A stretch of 64,000 nucleotides of DNA from an uncultured Halieaceae bacterium. GTDB lineage: Bacteria; Pseudomonadota; Gammaproteobacteria; Pseudomonadales; Halieaceae. Positions 47,417 to 62,254 of the stretch are shown here, piece by piece; position 1 is the first letter of the stretch, and the number at the start of each line of letters is the position of its first letter. The position numbers were made by a program, and so were the translations under genes. The stretch covers positions 56,019 to 120,018 of the forward strand of contig CALJGI010000015.1 in the NCBI GenBank assembly GCA_938074045.1, given 5' to 3'. The notes below the pieces were generated by a model. The model saw only the letters and a program-made list of their open reading frames with translations. It was not told the DNA's origin and did no database searches.

Positions 47417-47659
47417 TTACAGCATCTCAAACTGGCAATCCATCAGAGTTACCAGATCATCAAAGTCCTGCGCTGACAGGCTCATCGCGCGACATATATT
47501 GGAGCGGTTGCTATTCATCGATCGAAGTTGGCAGAAGAGATCAAAGTTCACCTGTGCCAGTTTCAGGGGATGTATCGCCACTTGCGGTCGAATGCTTACG
47601 CCAAATTCCCTGGGGGTGTCAGGGATGGTGGTAATGGACTGTTCGGGTCGATTTTGCAT
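47417..47659 (-). CDS. Hypothetical 80-aa protein
   Basis: This is the only sizeable ORF in the 47322-47978 gap and is co-oriented with the Fe-ADH gene. I recognised no family. Confidence 0.3.
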   Translation of the reverse strand: MQNRPEQSITTIPDTPREFGVSIRPQVAIHPLKLAQVNFDLFCQLRSMNSNRSNICRAMSLSAQDFDDLVTLMDCQFEML

Positions 47660-47840
47660 AACTGACTTCCTTTTTTGATCGAGTGTGTTTCAGTTCATGT
47701 GTTGCAACATATATGCCAGCTTTTTCTGATCCCCGGTTTGGCGCACCTCAACACCAACTCAACCTGTGAAATTTGGCGTCCAAAGGGGTTACGGACGCGA
47801 TATTGATCGACTGTTTCTGCAGAACGAATGCATGGTGAAT

Positions 47841-47852
47841 TGCAAAATGCAA
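47841..47852 (+). promoter_or_regulatory. TGCAAAATGCAA motif (TGCAWWWTGCAA family), candidate regulator/enhancer site upstream of the LruC gene
   Basis: This is one of three near-identical 12-mers that I found in intergenic regions heading the accessory operons. It lies 127 nt upstream of ATG 47979. Confidence 0.35.
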
Positions 47853-47978
47853 AAAGTATCTTTTGATCTTGCAGTCAGAGTCGCGGAGGCCAGTAAAAAC
47901 GGACCGATATGTTCGGTCTGGATTGGCATGAATCTTGAAGGTATTCAGGCAAATTGATTTCGTCAAAGAAGCCTGTTT

Positions 47979-50234
47979 ATGAAGTTCAGTACAGTTTTTA
48001 AGCGTGTCTTGTCGACTCTGGTTTTTCTCATGATCTGCAGCCCCTCCGTGGCTGCGCCGTTTTCTGCATGCCCCAATGAGGCATTTCTGACTCAGGGCAA
48101 ACCAGGGGTGCTCTATGGCGTTAATCTGACCAGTGGGCAGTACGATTTACTGAGCGAACTCAACACCGTGAATAAACTCAATGGTATGGGCTTTAATTAC
48201 CATGATGGCTATTTATACGCCTGGTATTATGAAGGGCAGACCCTCGCCAGAATTCATGCCGACTACTCCATAGAGCCGCTTACCCTGCAGCCGGCTTTGT
48301 CGCTGCAATACTACGTAGGTGACACTTCAGTTGCGGAAAATGCGCACTTCCTGTATCGAAAAAATGGAGATGACGGTGGACTTTGGCGCATAGAGCTTGA
48401 CCCGTCCGGGCAGGATTATCTTGCGGCGACTCGGATAGCCACCACCAGCAACCTCTACCTCAACATATTCGATATGGCTTTTCACCCATCGGACGGCTTT
48501 ATCTACAGCGTGGATAATATCGGTCGCCTGTACCGAATATCACCCGCCAATGGCAGCAGGACCGTGTTAGGAAATGTCGGTGAGTCAGGCACCTTTGGTG
48601 CGGTTTACTTTGATGCGGGTGGTCAGCTTTATATCAGTCGAAATCAGGATGGTCGTATTTTCAGAATTGACCCAAATGACGCGTCACCCACGGCTCAGTT
48701 CTTTTCCTATGGGCCAGCGTCCAGCAACAACGATGGCGCTCGATGCGCTCTGGCACCGGTTGCTGAGCCGGCGACGCCCTCTATGGATTTCGGTGATGCG
48801 CCCATCAGCTACGGCACCCGCATGGCGGAGAATGGCGCTCGCCATGTGGTAGTCAGTGGTATTCGACTGGGTGGCAAGATAGATGCTGAGAACAGGGCTT
48901 TCCTGGCGCCAGACGAGTCCGATGATGCCAAGGATGGCAGCGATGATGAAGATGGCGTGCAGGTTGTGACATCCATTACCCAGGGTGAGCAGGCAATTTT
49001 GCAGGTGGCTACCACTGGCAATGGGTTCCTGAATGTATGGATTGATCTGGACCGTAACGGTACTTTTGATGGCGCTGATCAGTTGGTCACAGATCTGGAG
49101 CTGTCAGGCTCGACACATTTTGTCACCATGGATGTACCTGCGGAATCTGCCATTGGACCAAGCTGGATGCGGGTACGCTACGCCAGCACCGTGGGCCTGT
49201 CTGCAACCGGAGCAGCGAGTGATGGTGAGGTTGAAGACTATCCCATCGAAATCACGCGACCTTCAACTAAGGTAGAGTATTACCCTTCAGAATCCGGGGT
49301 GGTAACCGTCGCCTTTGAGGATCTTTGGCCATCGGTCGGTGACTACGATCTGAATGATCTCGTAGTCTATTTGCGTACCTCCATCACATCAGACACAGAC
49401 GCTGGACAGCGGATCAGACAGATATCGGTTGAAGGTGAGTTTGCCGCGGTTGGGGCGGCATTTCACAGTGGCTTTGCCATTGCCATTCCCGGGCTCAAGA
49501 CTAAAGACGTAGATTATGCCAAGACGGAATTGCTAATAGATGGAAAAATTCCAACCGCTGTATCTGGCGGTACCATTGGGGAATTTCAGCCATTACAGGG
49601 AATAGCTATTGCGCAAAATCAGAATGCGCTGTTTGAGATAACCAGAGATTTGTGGAACGTTGTTGAAAAAGGTGAAGGCTGTGCCTTTTTCCGTTCCGAT
49701 AATAACTGTGGTGCGGCGAACAGAGTGCCGTTCTCGTTGGTGATCCCGGTGGTAGGTAACGTCCCCTTGTCGTCAATCGAGAAAGGAGCGTTTGATCCGT
49801 TTTTATTTGCAACCACGGGCTACGGAAGAAGCAGCATATTTGTGGACAGCCAGGGTAATCCATTGGCGCCCGGAGATGGGCTCGAAATCCACCTCAAAAA
49901 TCAATTGCCAACCTGGCGTGCTGATCAGGCTTTGCTGGGACGGTCTTCTGATCGCTCACAGTCCGCCACGCTTAATGCCGCGGGTAGTCCCGTCAGCTAT
50001 CAGACAGCCAACGGTTTGCCATGGGCAATTGAGGTGCCTGCCAGGTGGTGTTATCCCTCCGAATATCAGGATCTATCAATCGCATATCCTGATTTTCCGT
50101 TGTTTGTGCTCAGTAACGGCACCCAGGCCAGGAACTGGTATGTCGTCGGCAATGCCGCTTCACACCCCACCCGGGGAGCAGCGGGATATCTCTACAAACA
50201 AGACGGTTTGCTTGATGCAAGTTGTGCGCAATAA
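47979..50234 (+). CDS. Secreted LruC-domain protein with GEVED domain and N-terminal repeat (DUF6923-like) region
   Basis: It has a signal peptide ending SVAAP and repeated ...DGxLY... propeller-like units. DFGDAPISYG...DDEDGV...DGEVEDY marks a GEVED domain, and VAFEDLWPSVGDYDLNDLVV is the LruC/DUF4842 signature. Confidence 0.75.
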   Translation: MKFSTVFKRVLSTLVFLMICSPSVAAPFSACPNEAFLTQGKPGVLYGVNLTSGQYDLLSELNTVNKLNGMGFNYHDGYLYAWYYEGQTLARIHADYSIEPLTLQPALSLQYYVGDTSVAENAHFLYRKNGDDGGLWRIELDPSGQDYLAATRIATTSNLYLNIFDMAFHPSDGFIYSVDNIGRLYRISPANGSRTVLGNVGESGTFGAVYFDAGGQLYISRNQDGRIFRIDPNDASPTAQFFSYGPASSNNDGARCALAPVAEPATPSMDFGDAPISYGTRMAENGARHVVVSGIRLGGKIDAENRAFLAPDESDDAKDGSDDEDGVQVVTSITQGEQAILQVATTGNGFLNVWIDLDRNGTFDGADQLVTDLELSGSTHFVTMDVPAESAIGPSWMRVRYASTVGLSATGAASDGEVEDYPIEITRPSTKVEYYPSESGVVTVAFEDLWPSVGDYDLNDLVVYLRTSITSDTDAGQRIRQISVEGEFAAVGAAFHSGFAIAIPGLKTKDVDYAKTELLIDGKIPTAVSGGTIGEFQPLQGIAIAQNQNALFEITRDLWNVVEKGEGCAFFRSDNNCGAANRVPFSLVIPVVGNVPLSSIEKGAFDPFLFATTGYGRSSIFVDSQGNPLAPGDGLEIHLKNQLPTWRADQALLGRSSDRSQSATLNAAGSPVSYQTANGLPWAIEVPARWCYPSEYQDLSIAYPDFPLFVLSNGTQARNWYVVGNAASHPTRGAAGYLYKQDGLLDASCAQ

Positions 50235-51318: not shown

Positions 51319-51978
51319 TTAGTAAGCGCCTCGCGCTGACAGCACTGCGGGCACTGTGCGGATAAGAATGAGGAGGTCGGTCAATACAGAGCGGTTGTCG
51401 ATATACTCCAGATCCAGTCGTACCTGATCAGTGAAGGGTAGCTCAGATCTTCCGGATATTTGCCAAAGGCAGGTAATCCCCGGTACAACGGCGAGGCGCT
51501 GCATCTCGTAGCTGCTGTATTCGGCAACTTCGGAAGGAATTGGTGGGCGGGGGCCAACCAGCGTCATATCACCAGAAACAACATTCCACAGTTGCGGCAG
51601 CTCGTCGACTGAAAACTTTCTGATCCATTTCCCAAGCCGGGTGATACGTGGATCCTGGCGTATCTTGAAAGTGGGGCCGTCACTGATTTCATTGCTGTCT
51701 GACAGCATGTTTTTAATTGCTTCGGCGTCTACCACCATTGACCTGAACTTCCAGCACGTGAAATGGCTGCCGTCTTTTCCTACCCTCGTCTGTCCGAAAA
51801 GGACTGGCCCTGGACTGTCTAATTTAAGCGCTGCTGCTACCAGCAGTAGGAAGGGTAGGGCTACCAGCAGAGCGATGCCTGCCACAGCTATATCTATGGC
51901 TCGCTTGATCATTTCATAGGTGGTAACAGATTGGATGTGCAGGGTTGAGTAGGCCCACAGGTTTGTTATTCGTTGCAT
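51319..51978 (-). CDS. Polyprenyl-phosphate sugar-phosphate transferase (Bac_transf family; WbaP C-terminal-domain-like priming enzyme)
   Basis: It has the motifs KRAIDIAVAGIALLV, SPGPVLFGQTRVG, FKIRQDPRITRLG, DELPQLWNV..GDMTLVGPRP. I chose ATG 51978 (GGAGA upstream) because ATG 52014 would lie upstream of the predicted sigma-54 transcription start. ATG 51912 is also possible. Confidence 0.85.
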   Translation of the reverse strand: MQRITNLWAYSTLHIQSVTTYEMIKRAIDIAVAGIALLVALPFLLLVAAALKLDSPGPVLFGQTRVGKDGSHFTCWKFRSMVVDAEAIKNMLSDSNEISDGPTFKIRQDPRITRLGKWIRKFSVDELPQLWNVVSGDMTLVGPRPPIPSEVAEYSSYEMQRLAVVPGITCLWQISGRSELPFTDQVRLDLEYIDNRSVLTDLLILIRTVPAVLSARGAY

Positions 51979-52020
51979 TGTAGAGTTCTCCAGAATGTCC
52001 TTGTTGACACTCATCTACGT

Positions 52021-52036
52021 CGCAAACCGCGTGCCA
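52021..52036 (-). promoter_or_regulatory. Sigma-54 (-24/-12) promoter candidate for the priming transferase gene
   Basis: The minus strand reads TTGGCACG-CGGT-TTGCG, a perfect TGGCACG-N4-TTGC core. The predicted +1 is near 52010. Confidence 0.65.
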
Positions 52037-52101
52037 ATCCTACAACTAATTGAAATACATGAAGAAATCTTTGTGATGCTTGAGATGGCGTGTAGATTCA
52101 C

Positions 52102-52113
52102 TGCAATTTGCAA
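52102..52113. promoter_or_regulatory. TGCAATTTGCAA motif (TGCAWWWTGCAA family; inverted repeat TGCAA-T-TTGCA) between the divergent sigma-54 promoters
   Basis: It lies 65 nt from the minus-strand -24 element and 133 nt from the plus-strand -24 element, which is enhancer-like geometry. Confidence 0.4.
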
Positions 52114-52244
52114 AGCCTTCTGCAACTCATGCTGCGCCATGCTAATAAATCCGGTCGCTACGAATTCTGCGTTGCTAGGCTCAGAACCTATAAAAACAGT
52201 AATTTTTGAGTATTTTTTACGGCTTTATTTGGCGTCAGGAAAAC

Positions 52245-52260
52245 TGGCACGAACTCTGCA
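52245..52260 (+). promoter_or_regulatory. Sigma-54 (-24/-12) promoter candidate for the DUF6492-GT4-flippase-sulfotransferase operon
   Basis: The sequence is CTGGCACG-AACT-CTGCA, with invariant GG and GC at the correct spacing and one mismatch to TTGC. The predicted +1 is near 52271, the RBS GGAGAG is at 52283-52288 and the ATG is at 52296. Confidence 0.6.
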
Positions 52261-52295
52261 TTCCCTTGTGTAGATGCCAATTGGAGAGACTAAAA

Positions 52296-53174
52296 ATGCA
52301 GCAAGAGAAGTTGACCGAGACAGATATAGCGCTGGTCACGTGTTCATACGGCCCAGATTTTAAGCGTTGCCAGCGGCTGTGCGCCAGTGTGGACCAGTAT
52401 GTACCTGCGGCGATTGAACATATTCTGGTGGTCCCAGCAGAAGATCAAAAACTATTCAGTCAATTAGGTACTGGCAATCGAGTCATTGTCAGCGTTGAAG
52501 ACACTCTTCCATGTCGCTTCTCCCGAATTCCAATGACGAGAAAGTGGTGGCTGGGACCAAACTTTTGGCCCGTTCGCGGATGGATGTTGCAACAGCTCAC
52601 CAAATTGAGCGCGGACAGGCTGACGGACCGAGAGCTCATCATGTTTGTGGATTCGGACATCGAGTTTATTCGACCGCTGCTGACAGGACTGATTGTGCAA
52701 GGGGAATTGTGCCGACTGCACCGTCATCCTGGAGAGAAAAATACTGGAGAACACCTTAGGTGGCATCACATGGCAGCAGAGGTCCTCGATCTACCTAAAC
52801 AGTACTTCGGTAGTGATTATATTGCGCCTCTGGTCACATGGCGAAGAAGCAATCTGATCAGCTTGAAAAACATTATGCAGATACGTTCACAGCTGCCATG
52901 GCATGAATTATTGCTGCGGCGATTAACTATGTCTGAGTACATTTTATATGGAGTTTATGTTGAACATGTGTTGGGCGAGGACAACAACGGCCATTTCCCG
53001 GACGATGGGACACTTTGTCATTGCTGTTGGTTTGGTGAAGACGCCAATTTGTTGAATCGTGAACAGCGCGTCAGTGATTCTTCCCTTGCGGTTCTCATTC
53101 AATCCAATATCGGCCTGTCTGTTGATCATGTCGATGCCTTGATGCAGCAAGTACGCACCCAACTGGCACGTTAG
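52296..53174 (+). CDS. DUF6492-like protein, putative GT-A-like nucleotide-sugar transferase
   Basis: It has IALVTCSYGPDF... and a DxD-like motif FVDSDIEF. It is the first gene of the plus-strand polysaccharide operon. The family call is from memory. Confidence 0.5.
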   Translation: MQQEKLTETDIALVTCSYGPDFKRCQRLCASVDQYVPAAIEHILVVPAEDQKLFSQLGTGNRVIVSVEDTLPCRFSRIPMTRKWWLGPNFWPVRGWMLQQLTKLSADRLTDRELIMFVDSDIEFIRPLLTGLIVQGELCRLHRHPGEKNTGEHLRWHHMAAEVLDLPKQYFGSDYIAPLVTWRRSNLISLKNIMQIRSQLPWHELLLRRLTMSEYILYGVYVEHVLGEDNNGHFPDDGTLCHCCWFGEDANLLNREQRVSDSSLAVLIQSNIGLSVDHVDALMQQVRTQLAR

Positions 53175-54443: not shown

Positions 54444-55742
54444 ATGACGAGCCTATGCAAAATGAGTGTATTGGCTCTGAGTCGGGGCTTTGCAGTCTGC
54501 GCCCAGTTCGCCGTGCAAATTATAGTGGGTTATGTGGCGGGAGCGGCAGCCCTGGGAAGTTATCAATTGTTTACGGTGTGGTCGGCAATCCTGGGTGAGG
54601 GTATTGGCCGTGGTTTGCCAACCGGTACGATGAAAAAGGTCAGCGTGAATTTTGCAGAGGGAAAGTTATCGTCTATTTCGAATTGGATGGCATGGTCCTG
54701 TCGCGAGATAATCAGAGGTTGCGTGCCTCTCTTTTTACTATTCGTTCTGTTTTCGCTAGCGGCACGGATAGCCGGACTGCAAGTCAGTGATACTGCATTG
54801 GCATTTTGCGGTGGCGTCCTCCTTGCCGCGCCCTTGTTTGCCCTGAGTCGGGTTTATGCTGAAGCATTGAAGGCTATCGAACGACAGGTATTCGCCGTCG
54901 CAGTTGAAAACCTCATGGTCCCTGCATTCATATTGCTGCTGTGTGGTGTCTATGTAATTTTTGGATTGAGCGTCAATGAGGTGGCTCTTTTGATGGCATT
55001 TTCTGCCGCAGTTCTGTCTTCTTATTTGATAATGAGGCGAGCGCTTTTGAGATCCCTTTATGGCCTTTTGAATTCTTCTAAAGGCACAGAGTCTTGCCTG
55101 CCTCATTCTCGGGAGCTTAAGTATTTTTGGTTAATCGGATTACTCAATATTTGTTCATTGCAGATGCCTTTCCTTGTGCTTCCCTTATTCGCAGATTTGG
55201 CGGAGATAGGAGTGTTTGCTTTAGCCTTTAAGTTCATTAATGTGGTCACCACGATTCTCCTACTTTTATCGGCGGTATATAGTCCGCGCATGGCTCGCGC
55301 CGCGGCTATACACGATGTTTCCGGACTCCGCAGTCTGCTGCAGCAGACGCAGCTGATATCTGTGTGCGTATTTGTACCCTTAACCGCGTTTATCTACTTA
55401 AGCAGTGGATATATATCTGAATATCTGGGAGAAGACTTTGTAGGAGTCAAGGCTTTCTATCTTATTCTTGCCGTAGGCTATTTGTTCAATGCGGCGACCG
55501 GGTTACAAGGCGTACTGCTTAACATGGCGGGCGCTGCAAAGTTTGAAACCATTATTTCGGTTATTGTGATGGTAGTGTCTTTTTTTGCAGCGCTGGCATT
55601 CGGTCACCAGTACGGCGTAACTGGCGTTGCCATGGTATTCACCTGTGCTATTGCTTTAAAGAATATAGCGTCATATCTGGTGGCACTGTACTGGTTGAAT
55701 CACCTGGAAGTGGCCTCAAGAGATTTGGTGGTGGCTGTATGA
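54444..55742 (+). CDS. Polysaccharide flippase (Wzx-like, MOP superfamily)
   Basis: The protein is 432 aa with ~12 predicted TM segments and sits inside a glycan locus. It overlaps the sulfotransferase start by ATGA. Confidence 0.7.
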   Translation: MTSLCKMSVLALSRGFAVCAQFAVQIIVGYVAGAAALGSYQLFTVWSAILGEGIGRGLPTGTMKKVSVNFAEGKLSSISNWMAWSCREIIRGCVPLFLLFVLFSLAARIAGLQVSDTALAFCGGVLLAAPLFALSRVYAEALKAIERQVFAVAVENLMVPAFILLLCGVYVIFGLSVNEVALLMAFSAAVLSSYLIMRRALLRSLYGLLNSSKGTESCLPHSRELKYFWLIGLLNICSLQMPFLVLPLFADLAEIGVFALAFKFINVVTTILLLLSAVYSPRMARAAAIHDVSGLRSLLQQTQLISVCVFVPLTAFIYLSSGYISEYLGEDFVGVKAFYLILAVGYLFNAATGLQGVLLNMAGAAKFETIISVIVMVVSFFAALAFGHQYGVTGVAMVFTCAIALKNIASYLVALYWLNHLEVASRDLVVAV

Positions 55743-56689
55743 GAGATACGCGCAGAGAGAACGCTCTGGATTTTGTGATTGTAGGCGCACAAAAATCAGC
55801 AACAACATCTTTGTTTGAAATACTTAAAAACCACCCCCTCATCAGCTTGCCTATTGAAAAGGAAGTGCCGTTTTTTTCTGGTGATGATTTCGACCCCAGG
55901 CTGTGGCCCCGGTTTATGCAGTGTCACTTCGATGCAGCCTCACCCGGACAGATACTGGGAAAAATAAGCCCACAGTACATGTGTGACAGGCGGGTTGCAG
56001 GACGACTGGCCGGGCTGATGCCAGAAGTGCGGGTGATAGCTATATTACGAGATCCCATTGAGCGCAGCTGGTCGCATTTCCAAATGGGTAAGCGGCGGAT
56101 GACTGAGGAGAGGGATTTTTCAGGGGCGGTACGCGAGCTACTGGAGATCGATGCTCAGGAAAAAGCGGTATCACAAACGCCTCCGACCCACGCTGATGGT
56201 TATGAGTCGGAAGGCGATTTTTATCTGGCCTGGAGTGAATATGGTCGCCAGCTTACGGAGTTTTACCAGCACTTCTCCAGCGACCAGATACTGGTGCTTT
56301 TCACAGAAGACCTGAAGCGCGACCCGCAGTTGGTTATTGATCGCGTTCTGGCTTTCATAGGTCTTGCATCCGGTTACTCGCCAGCAAATCTCTCAACCAG
56401 ATCTCACCAGGGCGGGGGCGGTATGAAAATTTCTCACAACGTACGGGAGTGGTTTCGGCAGTGCCCACCCGTAGGTTGGCTGTGGTCACTGGTGCCGCCG
56501 CGTATACAGGGGAGAATCCGGTTCAAATATGAGCAATGGAACATTAGCGGGAGAGACGATCAAATGCCCCTGTGTGATGACCTGCGACAACTCCTTTATT
56601 CGCATTTTGCGAGAGACTTGAATCGCCTGAATGACTATGTCGAGTTGCTGCCGGAATGGAAATCGAGATATCGCCTGGATCTGCAGTAG
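55739..56689 (+). CDS. PAPS-dependent sulfotransferase (heparan-sulfate sulfotransferase-like, Sulfotransfer_1 type)
   Basis: It has the 5'-PSB loop FVIVGAQKSATTSL and the 3'-PB motif ILRDPIERSWSHF. Confidence 0.75.
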   Translation: MRDTRRENALDFVIVGAQKSATTSLFEILKNHPLISLPIEKEVPFFSGDDFDPRLWPRFMQCHFDAASPGQILGKISPQYMCDRRVAGRLAGLMPEVRVIAILRDPIERSWSHFQMGKRRMTEERDFSGAVRELLEIDAQEKAVSQTPPTHADGYESEGDFYLAWSEYGRQLTEFYQHFSSDQILVLFTEDLKRDPQLVIDRVLAFIGLASGYSPANLSTRSHQGGGGMKISHNVREWFRQCPPVGWLWSLVPPRIQGRIRFKYEQWNISGRDDQMPLCDDLRQLLYSHFARDLNRLNDYVELLPEWKSRYRLDLQ

Positions 56690-56695
56690 GCACGT

Positions 56696-56707
56696 TGCAT
56701 AATGCAA
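56696..56707. promoter_or_regulatory. TGCATAATGCAA motif (TGCAWWWTGCAA family; inverted repeat TTGCAT-A-ATGCAA)
   Basis: It lies in the 153-nt gap between the sulfotransferase and exporter genes, ~110 nt upstream of the sigma-54-like element at 56816. Confidence 0.4.
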
Positions 56708-56815
56708 TGCCTCCGGCGACGCCTGCTGATAAATATTCGCAGTAGAAGCTAGTGTTGCTACAGGAATAGCGGTTAAGTTACTGTTATTAAAGCATAAAAG
56801 ATGGGTTGGCCCAAT

Positions 56816-56831
56816 TGGCATTCGCCTTGCA
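56816..56831 (+). promoter_or_regulatory. Sigma-54-like -24/-12 element directly upstream of the exporter gene
   Basis: The sequence is TTGGCAT-TCGCC-TTGCA, with GG and GC at the correct spacing. The predicted +1 (~56842) abuts ATG 56843, so no leader or RBS would exist. Confidence 0.35.
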
Positions 56832-56842
56832 CTACATTGGGT

Positions 56843-59737
56843 ATGAAAACATATATTGCAATTTTCCGAGGGGTTTGTGCCGCCGCACTGGTCGTCTGGA
56901 GCGGGTCTTTGATGGCTTCTACTTATGAACCTTTTGTTGAACCTCTGGCGGCGGAACAACAGCGTCAATACCAGCAAGCAGGTGCGCGGGGTGCGGATGC
57001 TCCCCTGCAACCGCCTCAGGTTCCTCTCACGATAACGGTGCCGTCGGCCGTTGCGTCGACACTCACAGCACTTGACGACTCCGTTACTGATCGTCTGGGT
57101 GCCGTGACGGCGCTGGAGCGGCCGGTTGACCAGAAATTGGACATGCCGTTGCCGCATTTTGGGTATGACCTGTTCAATGTCGTACCGAGCACCTTTGCGC
57201 CGGTTGATAGCATACCAGTGCCGGCTGATTACAAGATCGGCCCTGGTGATACGTTGGTTATCCAACTGTTTGGAAACCGTAATGTTGAATTTACCCTGGT
57301 AGTCACCCGCGATGGTCAGATACTGATCCCTGAATACGGTCCACTGGCGGTAAGTGGGCTAACCTTTGATGAAGCTGAACGGCTGATCGTTGAGGGGTTT
57401 GAGCAGCGGGTTATTGGTGCGAAGGCGGTCGTCTCAATTGGTAAATTGCGCACCATCCAGGTAAGGGTGACTGGTGACGTAAACCAGCCCGGTATCTATA
57501 CCGTGGGCGCTCTGACCACCCTCATCGATGCCCTGATTGTGACGGGCGGAGTAAAGACGACGGGGTCCTTGCGCCGCATTCGGTTATACCGTGGTGATGT
57601 CATGGTCAGTCAGCTCGACTTATACGATCTGCTACTTCGCGGCCACACCAGGGGAGACGCCACACTTCGTCATGGCGACACCATCTTTGTGCCCGCTCTG
57701 GGCCCAGTCGCCTATGTTGCGGGTGAGGTCCAGCGACCCGCTATATACGAGCTGCTAGGCAAAGTTCAGCTGGACTCATTGATCGACATGGCCGGAGGAC
57801 TGCTGCCGGGAGCCTCCCTGACTTCATCTCATATTGAGCGAATCTCAGTTGGTGCAGGCAAGACCATCATTGATCTTGGCTCCATTGGTAAACGTTCTCT
57901 TGAAGATATTACAGTCGTCAATGGTGATCTTCTGCGGGTGCTGCCCAAGGAAGATCGACTGGATAATGTGGTTTTCCTCGAGGGACACGTGCGTCGTCCT
58001 GGTGGTTATCAGTTTCTGGAGCAGATGCGGCTCTCAGAGTTGATCTCAGGTCCAGAGGAATTGCTCCATGGCGCGGATATAGGCTTCGCCGCCATTCGGC
58101 GTGAAAACCCGACCACTCTGCGCACGGAGATAATCTATTTCAAGCCAGAAGAGTTATTTGGAAACCGTGGTGGCGCGCCAGATATTGCGCTCGTTAATCG
58201 CGATGTTGTTATGTTTTTTCGCGCCGCTGAGGCCAGAGAGAAAGTTTTGGCGGGTCTGGTCAAGGAGTTGCGTGAGCAGGCCGGTCACGGCCGACCCCCG
58301 CATACGATCGTTGTCAGTGGCTCGACCAAACATACGGGAACGTTTCCATTGCAAGCGGGAGCGCGATTGCTGGATGTAGTAGCTCTGGCTGGCGGTGTGC
58401 GTAGCGACACCGACCGTGCCTATGTTGTGGTGTCCAGCATGGACGAAGGTGATGACCAACTCTCCATGCGCGCGGTGGATCTTGAAGCGGCTACGCGATT
58501 TCCCGAGCACGATGATAACCTGCTCATTCGCCCGCGAGACAAAATCTATTTCTTTGGCGTGAACTCCGACCGGTCCGCGCTCATGGAGGACGACCTGTAT
58601 ACATTGAGGGAACAAGCAAGGTATGGCGCTGAGGTATTGACTGTGGGTGTGCTGGGTGAGGTATCTGCCCCCGGCACCTATCCTCTTGAGCCCGGCATGC
58701 GGACCAGTGATCTTGTTTGCGCAGCGGGTGGTTTGACCCGAAAGGCTGCTGGACTCAATGCCAGTCTTTCCCGTCACAGCAAGGATGGGCAAAGCCAGAA
58801 GCTGGTAGAGCATATCCAGATCGATATCGTGGCATTACTCAGCTTGTGTGAATATAGATTAGCGGTAAAACGGGGTGATGCCCTTTCGGAGGCACAGCAC
58901 CTCTACATGTCCCGGCTGGCTGAAATGGCTGACGATTATGTGCTGCAACCGATGGATCAGCTGGCGGTTAGTGTCAAGGCAAACTGGGTTGAAAAGTCGG
59001 TCGTGTATCTATCTGGTGAAGTGATTAATCCAGGTTCTTACGTTATTGATCCTGGAGAAACTCTTTGTGAAGTGCTGCAAAGAGCTGGTGGTATTACTAA
59101 TCGCGCTTATCTCCTGGGTGCTGTATTTACCCGTCAATCTGCTCTGGAAATGCAACAAAAAACCATCGAGCAGATACAGGGGCAACTGGATGAGCTAATG
59201 GTTGAGTTGTCGCTTTCTCACTCTGCACGCAACGCAGAAAAGAATGCCGAAAATGTGGGTGACAAGCGGGATTATCTGAACGTCATTAATCAGTTGGAAC
59301 GAGCCAAGCCTACTGGTCGGGTAGTGATTGATCTTGAGGAGCAATTGCGCTGTCGGCGCAAGTCGCAAATGGCGTTGCAAGACGGGGATCGACTGGAAGT
59401 CCCCATTCGACCTGACTTTGTCATGGTTTCCGGACAGGTATACGTGCCGACCAGTCAGCAGTACACGAAGGAAAGAACCGTCGCTGACTATGTAAAGCTC
59501 AGTGGGGGTCACACAGTATTGGGGCGACTTAACGACACATTTGTTATTCAGCCCAATGGTGAAGTATTGAACTATAGCGGAAGACGTCGCTCGTCCTCTA
59601 TTGCGCACAGGCATGTTATGCCCGGCGCCAGAATTTTTGTGCCGCTGAACGTGGATCGAATGAATGCCACTGAGAAGGCGCAGAGCTGGGTTAGCTCGCT
59701 GACGCAGGCAGCTTTGTTGGCGGGGTTGGTGTTGTGA
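56843..59737 (+). CDS. Very large outer-membrane polysaccharide export protein (Wza/OPX family; Poly_export domain plus about seven SLBB repeats)
   Basis: It has a signal peptide MKTYIAIFRGVCAAALVVWSGSLMA and the Poly_export motif YKIGPGDTLVIQLFGN. Iterated G-x-V-x2-PG-x-Y units are present (VTGDVNQPGIYTV, VAGEVQRPAIYEL, LEGHVRRPGGYQF, VSGSTKHTGTFPL, LGEVSAPGTYPL, LSGEVINPGSYVI, VSGQVYVPTSQQY). The C-terminus is hydrophobic (WVSSLTQAALLAGLVL). Confidence 0.8.
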   Translation: MKTYIAIFRGVCAAALVVWSGSLMASTYEPFVEPLAAEQQRQYQQAGARGADAPLQPPQVPLTITVPSAVASTLTALDDSVTDRLGAVTALERPVDQKLDMPLPHFGYDLFNVVPSTFAPVDSIPVPADYKIGPGDTLVIQLFGNRNVEFTLVVTRDGQILIPEYGPLAVSGLTFDEAERLIVEGFEQRVIGAKAVVSIGKLRTIQVRVTGDVNQPGIYTVGALTTLIDALIVTGGVKTTGSLRRIRLYRGDVMVSQLDLYDLLLRGHTRGDATLRHGDTIFVPALGPVAYVAGEVQRPAIYELLGKVQLDSLIDMAGGLLPGASLTSSHIERISVGAGKTIIDLGSIGKRSLEDITVVNGDLLRVLPKEDRLDNVVFLEGHVRRPGGYQFLEQMRLSELISGPEELLHGADIGFAAIRRENPTTLRTEIIYFKPEELFGNRGGAPDIALVNRDVVMFFRAAEAREKVLAGLVKELREQAGHGRPPHTIVVSGSTKHTGTFPLQAGARLLDVVALAGGVRSDTDRAYVVVSSMDEGDDQLSMRAVDLEAATRFPEHDDNLLIRPRDKIYFFGVNSDRSALMEDDLYTLREQARYGAEVLTVGVLGEVSAPGTYPLEPGMRTSDLVCAAGGLTRKAAGLNASLSRHSKDGQSQKLVEHIQIDIVALLSLCEYRLAVKRGDALSEAQHLYMSRLAEMADDYVLQPMDQLAVSVKANWVEKSVVYLSGEVINPGSYVIDPGETLCEVLQRAGGITNRAYLLGAVFTRQSALEMQQKTIEQIQGQLDELMVELSLSHSARNAEKNAENVGDKRDYLNVINQLERAKPTGRVVIDLEEQLRCRRKSQMALQDGDRLEVPIRPDFVMVSGQVYVPTSQQYTKERTVADYVKLSGGHTVLGRLNDTFVIQPNGEVLNYSGRRRSSSIAHRHVMPGARIFVPLNVDRMNATEKAQSWVSSLTQAALLAGLVL

Positions 59738-60678
59738 TGATCAATCACTCAGAGCACTTGGTTGCGCCTCCGACCGCTGCGTTGGAAATAGACCTGTGGC
59801 CCTATGTGGCTGCGCTGTTGGAATCCTGGCGTTTGGTATTGATGGCGGGTGTGCTCGCTGGAGCACTGGCTTATGTTGCTGGACAGATGGCGTCGCCCCT
59901 GTATGAGTCATCAGCGCGAATCAGCGTTGTGGATATCGAGGATCCGGGCGGCGTGTCACCGGATGATCGGCGGGCACCAGAAGTGCTCACCCTGGTGGAG
60001 CATGGATTCATCATGGGTACTACGCGAGATAATTATGACCAGGTGATGTTGGCCCGCTTGCGATCGCGTCAGTTTGCGCAGCTTTTTCTGGACACATTCA
60101 ATATTTATAAGCATATGTTTCCGGAGCATTGGGACAACGTGCAGGACGATTGGAAGAACGGTTTCGAACTGGACCGTGGACTCGCCTTTACAATATTCAG
60201 AGACAGTGTTCGCCTGATCGAGCATGACGAAGAGACCGACATAATCACTGTGAAAATGCAGTGGCCAGATGCGCTCCTGGCAAAAGAATGGGTGAATAAT
60301 TACATCGTTTTATTCAACGACTACATGCGAAAAAAGACTCTTGGCGACGTCGAAAAAAAGCAGAGCTTTCTGATCGAGGAATTGAAGAAGTCGGAGTTGG
60401 TAGATATTGAACGTTCGATATACCGATTGATAGAAGCACAGACTGCGATCGCCATGCTGGCGCATGCGCGCGAGGAATATGTACTGGAAGTCATAGACCC
60501 GGGTGCACTGCCCTACGCGAGCGTGAGTATGTCCCCAAGGAAAAGAGCGCTGTTGGGTTTTATGACCGGCTTGTTGCTGTCTGTTTTCTTCTTGTTTTGC
60601 AAAATCTTATTGATTCGTTTACTGGCGCGTTTTCGCCAACATCAAGAGACCTATCAGGTCGATATTTATGAGAAATGA
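59734..60678 (+). CDS. Wzz-like polysaccharide co-polymerase / chain-length determinant (no kinase domain)
   Basis: It has an N-terminal Wzz motif region with TM1 (WRLVLMAGVLAGALAYVA), a coiled-coil periplasmic region and a C-terminal TM segment (LLGFMTGLLLSVFFLF). It overlaps the exporter stop. Confidence 0.7.
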   Translation: MMINHSEHLVAPPTAALEIDLWPYVAALLESWRLVLMAGVLAGALAYVAGQMASPLYESSARISVVDIEDPGGVSPDDRRAPEVLTLVEHGFIMGTTRDNYDQVMLARLRSRQFAQLFLDTFNIYKHMFPEHWDNVQDDWKNGFELDRGLAFTIFRDSVRLIEHDEETDIITVKMQWPDALLAKEWVNNYIVLFNDYMRKKTLGDVEKKQSFLIEELKKSELVDIERSIYRLIEAQTAIAMLAHAREEYVLEVIDPGALPYASVSMSPRKRALLGFMTGLLLSVFFLFCKILLIRLLARFRQHQETYQVDIYEK

Positions 60679-62254
60679 TATGACACATGCAGCTCTTTAT
60701 GACGAACGTCAGTTTGTTAATTCGCTCGGTATTCCAGTGGATAACCTGACAATGCACGAGGCGGTGGAAGAGGTGATCAAACTCGCCAGACGTAGGGATG
60801 GCAGATCCCGCTGGGTAGCGACTCTGAATGTTGATTTTCTGACCAATTCACTGGGGTTTGGTTTTGCAAAGCCTCGGCACCCCGAACTGCTGGACGTACT
60901 CAGAAACTCGGATCTTGTGACCGCCGACGGATTTCCGATTCTGTGGCTGAGCCGGATGACGGGCCATACCCTCAAACAGCGTGTAACCGGTGCAGATCTT
61001 ATGCCAGCTATCGCAGCGCGTTCCGCTCAAGAAGGCTTGTCTTTGTATTTGTTGGGTGGAGCGCCAGGAAGCGCAGAGGACGCTGCTGCGATTTTGCAGG
61101 AGCAAAATCCCGGCCTGGCGATAGCTGGATGCGCTGCACCATACATTTCAACTTCAGGACCACAGCTGGTCAATTGGTCAGATGATGATGATGCCATAGT
61201 GGAATTGATCAACAGCTCTGGCGCCGATGTTCTCTTTATTGGATTGGGCAATCCCAAGCAGGAACTATGGTTTAGTCGCAACAGGGAACGTTTGAATGTA
61301 CCTGTATCTATGGGTGTGGGTGGCACCTTCGAGTTTATTACCGGGCGGGTAGCTCGAGCGCCCCAGTTGTTGCAACGCTGTAACCTGGAGTGGGCCTATC
61401 GAATAACGAGGGACCCCCAGCGTCTGTGGAAGCGATATGCGGTGGGTGTTGTAAAGCTGACCATACTTGCAGCGCCTCTATTGTGGCTTCGACTTATAGA
61501 TACTTATTACAACCTTGCACATCCGGTGAAAAAGGGTACTGCGGTTTGGAAAACAATCTGGTCTTCGAAAGCCAGATCGATCCAGCTGTGTCGGCTACCT
61601 GCGCAAGTCATTGATGAGCACTTGATGGACATAGTGCGACGCCAGCGTATGCCATTATGTGGAGACAGTCTTTTGTTTATAGACTTTTCGGCGGTTGATC
61701 ATGTCGACCTGGCGGCGCATCATCATTTTTTCCGCCTGGCGGCATTGGCCGGCAGTCCAGGCCGCGATGTGCAATTGTTGGGTGTTTCACCGGATTTACA
61801 GCGTCGATTAGGCGCGAGCCGGTTGATTGATCTGTTTGATTCCTCTGTTGCGGGTGATTCAATTTCCTCGTTGAGAGATCTGAATTCGGCGGATGAATCT
61901 GGTTTTGGATGCTCCAGTTATGTGCTCGAAAGCAGCGCCATCATCTTTCTCAGCGGCAAGGTTACCGGTGCAAGTCTGAACGGGATCGGATTCCAGGAGT
62001 GTTTGTTACAGAACACCAGGCAACGTACATGTGTTCTGGACATGAGGCGGGTTGATGCCGTGGATACGTCGGGGCTGGCTGAGTTGTATGCGGCTTGCGC
62101 AGCTGCAGCCGAGGAAGGCGGCGCCGTGCTAGTTAGTGGGGCTGGAGAACTCACCAGGCAGGCCATGAGAATCTGTGGCCTGGATTGGCCGGTTGAGTTC
62201 ATTGATGATCTGGAAATGTTGTCCTGGATTGTTGGCGAGGCATCTCGTGCCTGA
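60668..62254 (+). CDS. WecB/TagA/CpsF (GT26) glycosyltransferase fused to two C-terminal STAS domains
   Basis: GT26 motifs occupy aa ~20-262 (GIPVDNLTMHEAV, VATLNVDFL, ADGFPILWLSR, YLLGGAPG, GLGNPKQELW, MGVGGTFEFITGRVARAP, EWAYRITRDPQRLWKRY). STAS1 spans aa ~295-395 (LLFIDFSAVDHVDLAA...VQLLGVSPDLQRRL). STAS2 spans aa ~415-520 (CVLDMRRVDAVDTSGLAEL...VLVSGAGELTRQAMRICGL). Confidence 0.75.
   Translation: MRNDMTHAALYDERQFVNSLGIPVDNLTMHEAVEEVIKLARRRDGRSRWVATLNVDFLTNSLGFGFAKPRHPELLDVLRNSDLVTADGFPILWLSRMTGHTLKQRVTGADLMPAIAARSAQEGLSLYLLGGAPGSAEDAAAILQEQNPGLAIAGCAAPYISTSGPQLVNWSDDDDAIVELINSSGADVLFIGLGNPKQELWFSRNRERLNVPVSMGVGGTFEFITGRVARAPQLLQRCNLEWAYRITRDPQRLWKRYAVGVVKLTILAAPLLWLRLIDTYYNLAHPVKKGTAVWKTIWSSKARSIQLCRLPAQVIDEHLMDIVRRQRMPLCGDSLLFIDFSAVDHVDLAAHHHFFRLAALAGSPGRDVQLLGVSPDLQRRLGASRLIDLFDSSVAGDSISSLRDLNSADESGFGCSSYVLESSAIIFLSGKVTGASLNGIGFQECLLQNTRQRTCVLDMRRVDAVDTSGLAELYAACAAAAEEGGAVLVSGAGELTRQAMRICGLDWPVEFIDDLEMLSWIVGEASRA

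Follow-up and report, generated by a model that had tools for sequence, protein, structure and literature searches.

What controls the polysaccharide genes of an uncultured Halieaceae bacterium? The 64,000-nt stretch of DNA that we analysed (contig CALJGI010000015.1, positions 56,019-120,018; hereafter the window) carries what, judged by its genes, is a Wzx/Wzy-type exopolysaccharide locus. At positions 51979-52295, a control region of 317 bp holds two sigma-54-type -24/-12 motifs that point away from each other into the genes on either side. We argue that both motifs are sigma-54 promoters of a polysaccharide regulon of the LuxO/SypG type, driven by a LuxO-like activator that the locus itself encodes, a reading of the sequence to which we give a probability of about 0.78. 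The analysis covered ~72 kb of this genome, that is, the window plus a contig overlapping it.

The two promoters, here called P(-) and P(+), face outwards from an AT-rich gap (42.3% GC against 54.4% across the window), much as the initial annotation of this DNA had described. On the minus strand, P(-) (TGGCACGCGGTTTGCG, 52021..52036) scores 16.2 bits against a sigma-54 weight matrix and has its GG doublet at 52035-52034 and its GC doublet at 52023-52022. Its core TGGCACGCGGTTTGC (52036..52022, minus) is indeed the perfect TGGCACG-N4-TTGC that had been claimed, with 0 mismatches; the sequence reported for it was right but the coordinates, 52036-52021, had slipped by one base, the full minus-strand read TTGGCACGCGGTTTGCG spanning 52037..52021. 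On the plus strand, P(+) (TGGCACGAACTCTGCA, 52245..52260, 17.7 bits; GG 52246-52247, GC 52258-52259) departs from the consensus in its core TGGCACGAACTCTGC (52245..52259) by a single mismatch, T to C at -15, again in agreement with the earlier description. In both promoters the GG and GC doublets stand at the exact spacing, 10 bp apart within TGGCAC-N5-TTGCW, and the distance from one -12 element to the other is 237 bp. Each motif aims into a gene, as had been stated: P(+) into the gene of a DUF6492 protein (52296..53174, plus strand; Pfam PF20102), whose ATG 52296 is preceded by the ribosome-binding site (RBS) GGAGAG at 52283-52288, and P(-) into the gene of a small polyprenyl-phosphate sugar-phosphate transferase of 219 aa (Bac_transf, 51319..51978, minus strand; Pfam PF02397, E 1e-65), with GGAGA 8 nt before ATG 51978. 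Transcription is predicted to start near 52271 from P(+) and near 52010 from P(-), giving 5' untranslated regions of ~25 nt and ~32 nt, respectively, each with its RBS. A consensus scan of the same gap found no sigma-70 consensus promoter.

The position of P(-) also bears on the start of the transferase gene. The annotated ATG 52014, which the initial annotation had discarded in favour of ATG 51978, lies 8 nt past the C of the P(-) -12 element and upstream of any predicted +1, against 44 nt for ATG 51978. The spacing in orthologues agrees with this choice: an in-frame transferase ATG follows the -12 C by 38-49 nt in 10 of 12 (42-49 nt in nine), usually with a GGAG-type RBS. Public gene calls use the 219-aa form of the transferase, which explains why an exact-sequence look-up of the 231-aa form returned no record. 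Public assemblies also carry a 92-aa hypothetical gene (51995-52273, plus strand) that spans the control region and is probably spurious; none of the orthologous loci has a homologue of it, and conservation under this call is confined to the regulatory motifs.

Could such a pair of motifs arise by chance? The simple pattern with at most one mismatch occurs twice in the 64 kb, where 2.31 matches are expected, a count that is not significant on its own. As this count is uninformative, we used weight-matrix simulation, co-occurrence and conservation in its place. P(+) and P(-) rank first and fourth among all weight-matrix matches in the window, and five matches reach at least 15.5 bits where 0.56 are expected (~10-fold), a number attained in none of 300 first-order Markov simulations of the window scored with the same matrix. 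Nor does any of these 300 simulations yield a divergent pair of at least 16 bits with its members 100-400 nt apart, which bears out the earlier statement that two matches back to back are improbable by chance. The scan, which had been suggested as a check, revealed no high density of equal matches in coding DNA: four of the five best matches are intergenic and point into genes, and the fifth, 60991(-), lies antisense within a gene.

Conservation provides the second line of evidence. A contig scan with a single DUF6492 protein as query found no close relative, but a scan based on an alignment of DUF6492 homologues succeeded and retrieved 80 loci. The nearest relatives of the locus belong to Halieaceae and other Cellvibrionales, at ~45-55% protein identity, and the exact proteins of the window are present on metagenome contigs. 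We found that the divergent pair is kept in 12 loci from Haliea, Halioglobus, Congregibacter, NOR5-3 and other Halieaceae, whose proteins are 45-55% identical. In these relatives, a plus-strand -24/-12 site stands 50-100 nt upstream of DUF6492 and a minus-strand site ~230 nt further upstream heads the same transferase gene, the -12 to -12 distance being 246-258 bp. In our alignment of the region (A2), the columns GGCA and TGC do not vary in either promoter, and most of the spacer is unconserved; the GG/GC columns are likewise invariant across alignments A2 and A3 (13 sequences). The CTGC variant of P(+), due to the T to C change at position 52255 (-15), is kept in nearly all orthologues, and TTGC is retained in P(-) and in a third promoter of the locus, P3. 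Such conservation across orthologues indicates that the mismatch of P(+) is a feature of this promoter, and suggests tuned promoter strength rather than decay. The arrangement is not uniform among relatives: three loci (L003, L006 and L008) have the DUF6492 promoter and lack its divergent partner, and a further group carries a promoter and enhancer ahead of an extra gene ~1.2 kb upstream. Strong sigma-54 matches drop tenfold, from 2.10 to 0.21 per 10 kb, in a comparison set of 53 distant DUF6492 loci (cyanobacteria, actinobacteria, planctomycetes and others).

Beyond the promoter pair described in the initial annotation, we observed a shared LuxO-type site, two further modules within the window and a candidate activator gene a short way outside it.

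The shared site is a putative upstream activating sequence (UAS) placed between the two promoters. This element (CTGCAATTTGCAA, 52101..52113) matches the palindrome TTGCA-W3-TGCAA with one mismatch and forms the central conserved block of alignment A2, where its consensus reads GAATTGCAATTTGCAATTC; an additional TGCAA half-site lies at 52121-52125. Measured from the centre of the palindrome, the -12 C lies 85 nt away in P(-) and 152 nt away in P(+). By number alone, palindromes of this kind are at chance level, as TTGCA-N3-TGCAA with at most one mismatch occurs at four sites in the window (47840, 50208, 52101 and 56695) and 3.4 are expected. Three of the four stand 85-152 nt upstream of top sigma-54 matches, and the remaining one at 50208, in coding DNA, is probably a chance occurrence. 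The same association holds in relatives. Among 27 gammaproteobacterial relatives, 45 of the 66 strong sigma-54 matches (at least 14 bits) are preceded by a palindrome, 50-190 nt before the -12 element, with 3.1% expected, against 6 of 245 weak control matches. Distances from the palindrome centre to the -12 C in the window and in loci L003-L029 fall into classes ~11 bp apart (85, 96, 107, 118, 130, 152 and 163), with a Rayleigh R of 0.57 for a period of 11 bp and of 0.09-0.22 for periods of 9-10 bp, the loci being related and thus non-independent; for P(+), the distances are 129-131 or 149-152 only. These steps are consistent with helical phasing, that is, with a face-of-helix constraint on DNA looping.

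The palindrome has a known counterpart in Vibrionaceae, where TTGCAWWWTGCAA has been reported as the upstream activating sequence of LuxO and TTCTCANNNTGMDWN as the motif of the LuxO paralogue SypG (eLife 2023, PMC10162802). Of the two, the LuxO form is the one that TTGCAAAATGCAA, CTGCAATTTGCAA and TTGCATAATGCAA of the window fit; read by eye as (T/C)TGCA-W3-TGCAA, these sites have a LuxO-type first half-site and do not match the SypG-type TTCTCANNNTGMDWN.

An integration host factor (IHF) may also participate, which we consider tentative. A sequence resembling an IHF site (TTTCAATTAGTTG, 52043..52055, minus strand, one mismatch to WATCARNNNNTTR) is located between P(-) and the UAS, within an A/T-rich block conserved in A2. 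The support comes from this alignment and not from the match, for which the background is 1.4 matches per kb. In relatives, similar A/T-rich blocks flank the palindrome (e.g. TAACCTATTGATTTT).

The same combination of palindrome and promoter recurs elsewhere in the locus. In a third module, a perfect LuxO-type palindrome (TTGCATAATGCAA, 56695..56707) precedes P3 (TGGCATTCGCCTTGCA, 56816..56831, plus strand, 15.6 bits), with its centre 129 nt from the -12 C and an IHF-like block at 56774-56786. P3 lies ahead of the polysaccharide export (Poly_export/SLBB) gene. At least 12 relatives keep it, ~4.5 kb downstream of where DUF6492 starts, and their modules usually have two tandem palindromes 22-23 bp apart. 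From the position of this module, the export gene likely starts at 56912, as in public calls, and not at 56801, where the open reading frame (ORF) has its first ATG. A second divergent control region is probably present in the gap at 47660-47978, whose geometry resembles that of the focal region (span of 237 bp). There, a sigma-54-like promoter on the minus strand (TGGCATATATGTTGCA, 47703..47718, 16.3 bits) and a weaker and uncertain plus-strand site with GA in place of GC at -12 (TGGCATGAATCTTGAA, 47924..47939, 13.3 bits), ahead of the gene of a LruC/GEVED secreted protein at 47979, enclose a perfect LuxO-type palindrome (TTGCAAAATGCAA, 47840..47852). On its minus side, this region faces an 80-aa ORF (47417-47659) that matches no Pfam family and lacks homologues in the loci examined. 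The presence of the same module at the export gene, and probably at the 47.7-kb gap, points to the whole locus being one regulon, with at least three promoters and probably five.

We could not find any signature of an activator or of RpoN, including an RpoN box, inside the window. A contig that matches its last 3.3 kb (3332 of 3333 positions identical) continues with genes for a GT2 glycosyltransferase and a 405-aa membrane protein and then, ~760 bp beyond the end of the window, for a 473-aa regulator with the Response_reg, Sigma54_activat and HTH_8 domains of a bacterial enhancer-binding protein (bEBP; ~64758-66179 in extended coordinates). Next come the gene of an H-NOX protein and the first part of an HNOBA-like one. 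The best NCBIfam model for the regulator is LuxO (NF041946, 621.7 bits), with NtrC at 415 bits, and its best PDB match is LuxO 5EP0 (54% identity over 383 aa); the GAFTGA motif is intact. Orthologues with 63-68% identity are common in Halieaceae and often labelled LuxO by JGI. Congregibacter brevis, which has a complete genome, and a metagenome-assembled Halioglobus genome both display the gene order of the window, ending with the regulator, H-NOX and a hybrid kinase; in relatives this kinase comprises HisKA, HATPase_c, receiver and Hpt domains. In L006 and L011, genes for the regulator, H-NOX and the hybrid kinase also adjoin the locus in a different arrangement. Owing to this conserved linkage and to the identity of the motif, the LuxO-like regulator encoded by the locus is most likely the activator, or at least the best candidate for it.

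The regulator gene may itself be under the same type of control. A LuxO-type palindrome together with a TGGCAC-N5-TTGA(A/C) motif recurs upstream of it in four diverged loci (L083 5775-5899, corresponding to ~64589-64713 in extended coordinates; L086 9912-9944; L006 ~85-125; L011 ~1588-1625), the palindrome being perfect in L083. The motif could be a sigma-54 promoter whose -12 element is unusual, or else a sigma-70 -35 TTGAC box overlapped by the site of the regulator, and both would be compatible with autoregulation. In Congregibacter brevis, the gap before the LuxO-like gene is 57 nt long and contains no such site.

Put together, these elements suggest the following scheme. The priming sugar-phosphate transferase would be transcribed by P(-) from ~52010, and the operon for DUF6492, glycosyltransferase, flippase and sulfotransferase by P(+) from ~52271, with the single UAS at 52101-52113 serving both divergent promoters. 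The phosphorylated LuxO-like regulator would assemble on the palindrome and contact the sigma-54 holoenzyme at either promoter through DNA looping, possibly assisted by the IHF-like A/T blocks, and its ATP hydrolysis would open the promoter. The H-NOX haem sensor and the hybrid kinase, with its receiver and Hpt domains, probably set the phosphorylation state of the regulator. Precedents exist in V. harveyi, where the signal passes from H-NOX/HqsK to LuxU and LuxO (PMC6769237), and in V. fischeri, where HnoX/HahK feed SypG (PMC12369376). By analogy with Vibrio, H-NOX bound to nitric oxide (NO) might inhibit the kinase and turn polysaccharide synthesis off, the sign of this response being a guess.

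Besides the uninformative pattern count, several points weigh against this interpretation. The sigma-54 weight matrix is approximate, with frequencies after the compilation of Barrios et al., and the co-occurrence and phasing counts derive from phylogenetically linked loci and hence from non-independent events. The site at 47924(+) has no -12 C, and the module at 47.7 kb is known from the window alone. The IHF consensus has one match with one mismatch on the P(-) side of the window sequence and none on the P(+) side. The presence of rpoN in the genome is assumed. Finally, the regulator scores under the cutoff of the Vibrio LuxO equivalog (621.7 against 800 bits) and is thus LuxO-like and not an equivalog, its DNA specificity is predicted from family resemblance, and LuxO-like paralogues may be encoded elsewhere in the genome.

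These last points, together with the limited view of the genome (~72 kb) and a good score of the regulator with TIGR02915, the model of the PEP-CTERM regulator PrsR (382 bits, cutoff 503), would favour a scenario in which the sigma-54 promoters are real and respond to another bEBP encoded elsewhere, either of the NtrC family or PrsR-like, with the palindrome serving as the site of that bEBP or of some unrelated factor and the neighbouring LuxO-like gene having other targets. We regard this scenario as unlikely, though the most serious of the alternatives, as the palindrome has exactly the sequence published for LuxO, the LuxO model is far ahead of any other (622 bits, the others reaching at most 415), synteny of the regulator gene with the locus holds in all relatives examined, and a perfect copy of the palindrome lies upstream of the regulator gene itself.

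Much less probable is that the TGGCAC-N5-TTGC elements are not sigma-54 promoters at all, and that the LuxO-like protein acts at sigma-70 promoters, either as a repressor or as an activator in the manner of VpsR and FleQ, bEBP-like proteins that control polysaccharide genes at sigma-70 promoters. In addition to this precedent, the TTGCA of the -12 element resembles a half-site of the UAS. Nevertheless, GG and GC are invariant and exactly spaced in all orthologues, with a fixed distance to the start codon, the GAFTGA loop of the regulator is intact, the focal gap has no sigma-70 consensus promoter, and a palindrome 85-160 nt from the promoter, with ~11-bp phasing, is what activation by looping typically shows.

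That both motifs are functionless chance matches in an AT-rich spacer, as the simple pattern count taken by itself would allow (2 against 2.31), is effectively refuted by the conservation of both sites in 12 diverged loci with invariant GG/GC amid unconserved DNA, by the lack of any such divergent pair in 300 simulations, and by the co-occurrence of palindromes and the tenfold scarcity of matches in the distant-locus control.

Control by sigma-54 and a LuxO-like activator, the interpretation that we prefer, closely recalls the syp system of V. fischeri, a polysaccharide cluster with several internal sigma-54 promoters that each have an upstream enhancer (PMC10162802, PMC12369376). As in syp, a response regulator paralogous to LuxO is encoded inside the locus, and H-NOX with a partner kinase would feed into it; similarity of the remaining genes is at the domain level only (sugar-phosphate transferase, flippase, Poly_export/SLBB, Wzz-like, GT2 and STAS). 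There are also differences. The enhancer of this locus is the symmetric LuxO-type TTGCA-W3-TGCAA, whereas syp uses the SypG motif TTCTCANNNTGMDWN; a divergent promoter pair shares one enhancer, and the locus includes DUF6492 and sulfotransferase genes. H-NOX and a receiver/Hpt kinase are found beside the regulator, in contrast to the separate hnoX-hahK operon of V. fischeri. We saw no SypE-like gene in this locus, and its STAS domain is fused to WecG, whereas SypA of V. fischeri is a free-standing STAS protein.

The LuxO-Qrr quorum-sensing node of Vibrionaceae is another of the closest parallels. The regulator has LuxO as its best family and structure match, the 13-bp motif is the same (TTGCAWWWTGCAA) and stands ~85-160 nt upstream of sigma-54 promoters, and a hybrid kinase phosphorelay controlled by H-NOX is likewise known there (PMC6769237). 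However, the targets in this locus would be polysaccharide structural genes and not Qrr small RNAs, and Hpt is fused to the kinase, unlike the separate LuxU of Vibrio. Qrr or other Rfam RNAs gave no match in the window and L083, even at E<=1 (72 kb examined). More generally, sigma-54 promoters have been associated with exopolysaccharide biosynthesis and export and with genes for the cell exterior (Francke et al. 2011, PMC3162934).

In the literature collection searched, no paper linked Halieaceae with LuxO-type control. The type of control is a known, syp-like one, for which this locus provides a well-supported new example in a Halieaceae-like marine bacterium. We further propose, tentatively and at a little less than an even chance, that Halieaceae (OM60/NOR5) possess a self-contained circuit running from H-NOX through an Hpt hybrid kinase and a LuxO-family activator to sigma-54 promoters, and acting directly on the structural genes of a sulfated exopolysaccharide by way of LuxO-type enhancers. 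If true, LuxO-type regulators would control matrix genes directly outside Vibrionaceae, without Qrr RNAs, and NO, of which phytoplankton and denitrifiers are possible sources, would control aggregation and attachment to particles in the OM60/NOR5 clade, which is abundant in coastal seawater. An anonymous polysaccharide cluster of an abundant marine clade would thereby become a defined regulon, in which promoters and a 13-bp enhancer are joined by candidates for the activator and for the NO input. The occurrence of the LuxO-type motif at polysaccharide genes outside Vibrionaceae also bears on the diversification of LuxO/SypG regulators. Congregibacter brevis and strain NOR5-3 are cultured and have an identical layout, making the model experimentally accessible. 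For annotation, the gains are the corrected start codons at 51978 and probably 56912, and a flag on the spurious 92-aa call.

The remaining genes of the locus complete this picture. The plus-strand operon consists of DUF6492, a GT4 glycosyltransferase, a MatE-like flippase and a sulfotransferase (55739-56689, plus strand), the last of which is conserved in L085 and L086 and suggests that the polysaccharide is sulfated, as it probably is. After a gap follow the large Poly_export/SLBB protein, a Wzz-like protein, a fusion of a WecG transferase with STAS, and a GT2 protein. Several window proteins resemble families associated with PEP-CTERM/XrtA loci, which use a PrsK/PrsR sigma-54 regulator (PMC1569441). 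Membership in that system was rejected, as the models specific to it, namely those for EpsB_2, stp1, the export protein and PrsR, all score under their curated cutoffs (TIGR03013, 173 against 393; TIGR03087, 158 against 317; TIGR03027, 122 against 180); moreover, and unlike in PEP-CTERM/XrtA systems, the regulator fits LuxO over PrsR, and no exosortase was seen in the window.

The one non-intergenic site among the five top weight-matrix matches (TGGCATAAGATCTGCA, 60991-61006, minus strand, 16.3 bits) lies antisense within the WecG/STAS gene; having neither an upstream palindrome nor a counterpart in relatives, it is probably a chance match and not a promoter. The gene itself (60668..62254, plus strand) encodes, according to Pfam, a WecG/TagA-family glycosyltransferase with a C-terminal STAS domain, a fusion conserved in L011, L085 and L086 that may place a regulatory domain of the partner-switching type (anti-sigma-antagonist-like) directly on a biosynthetic enzyme.

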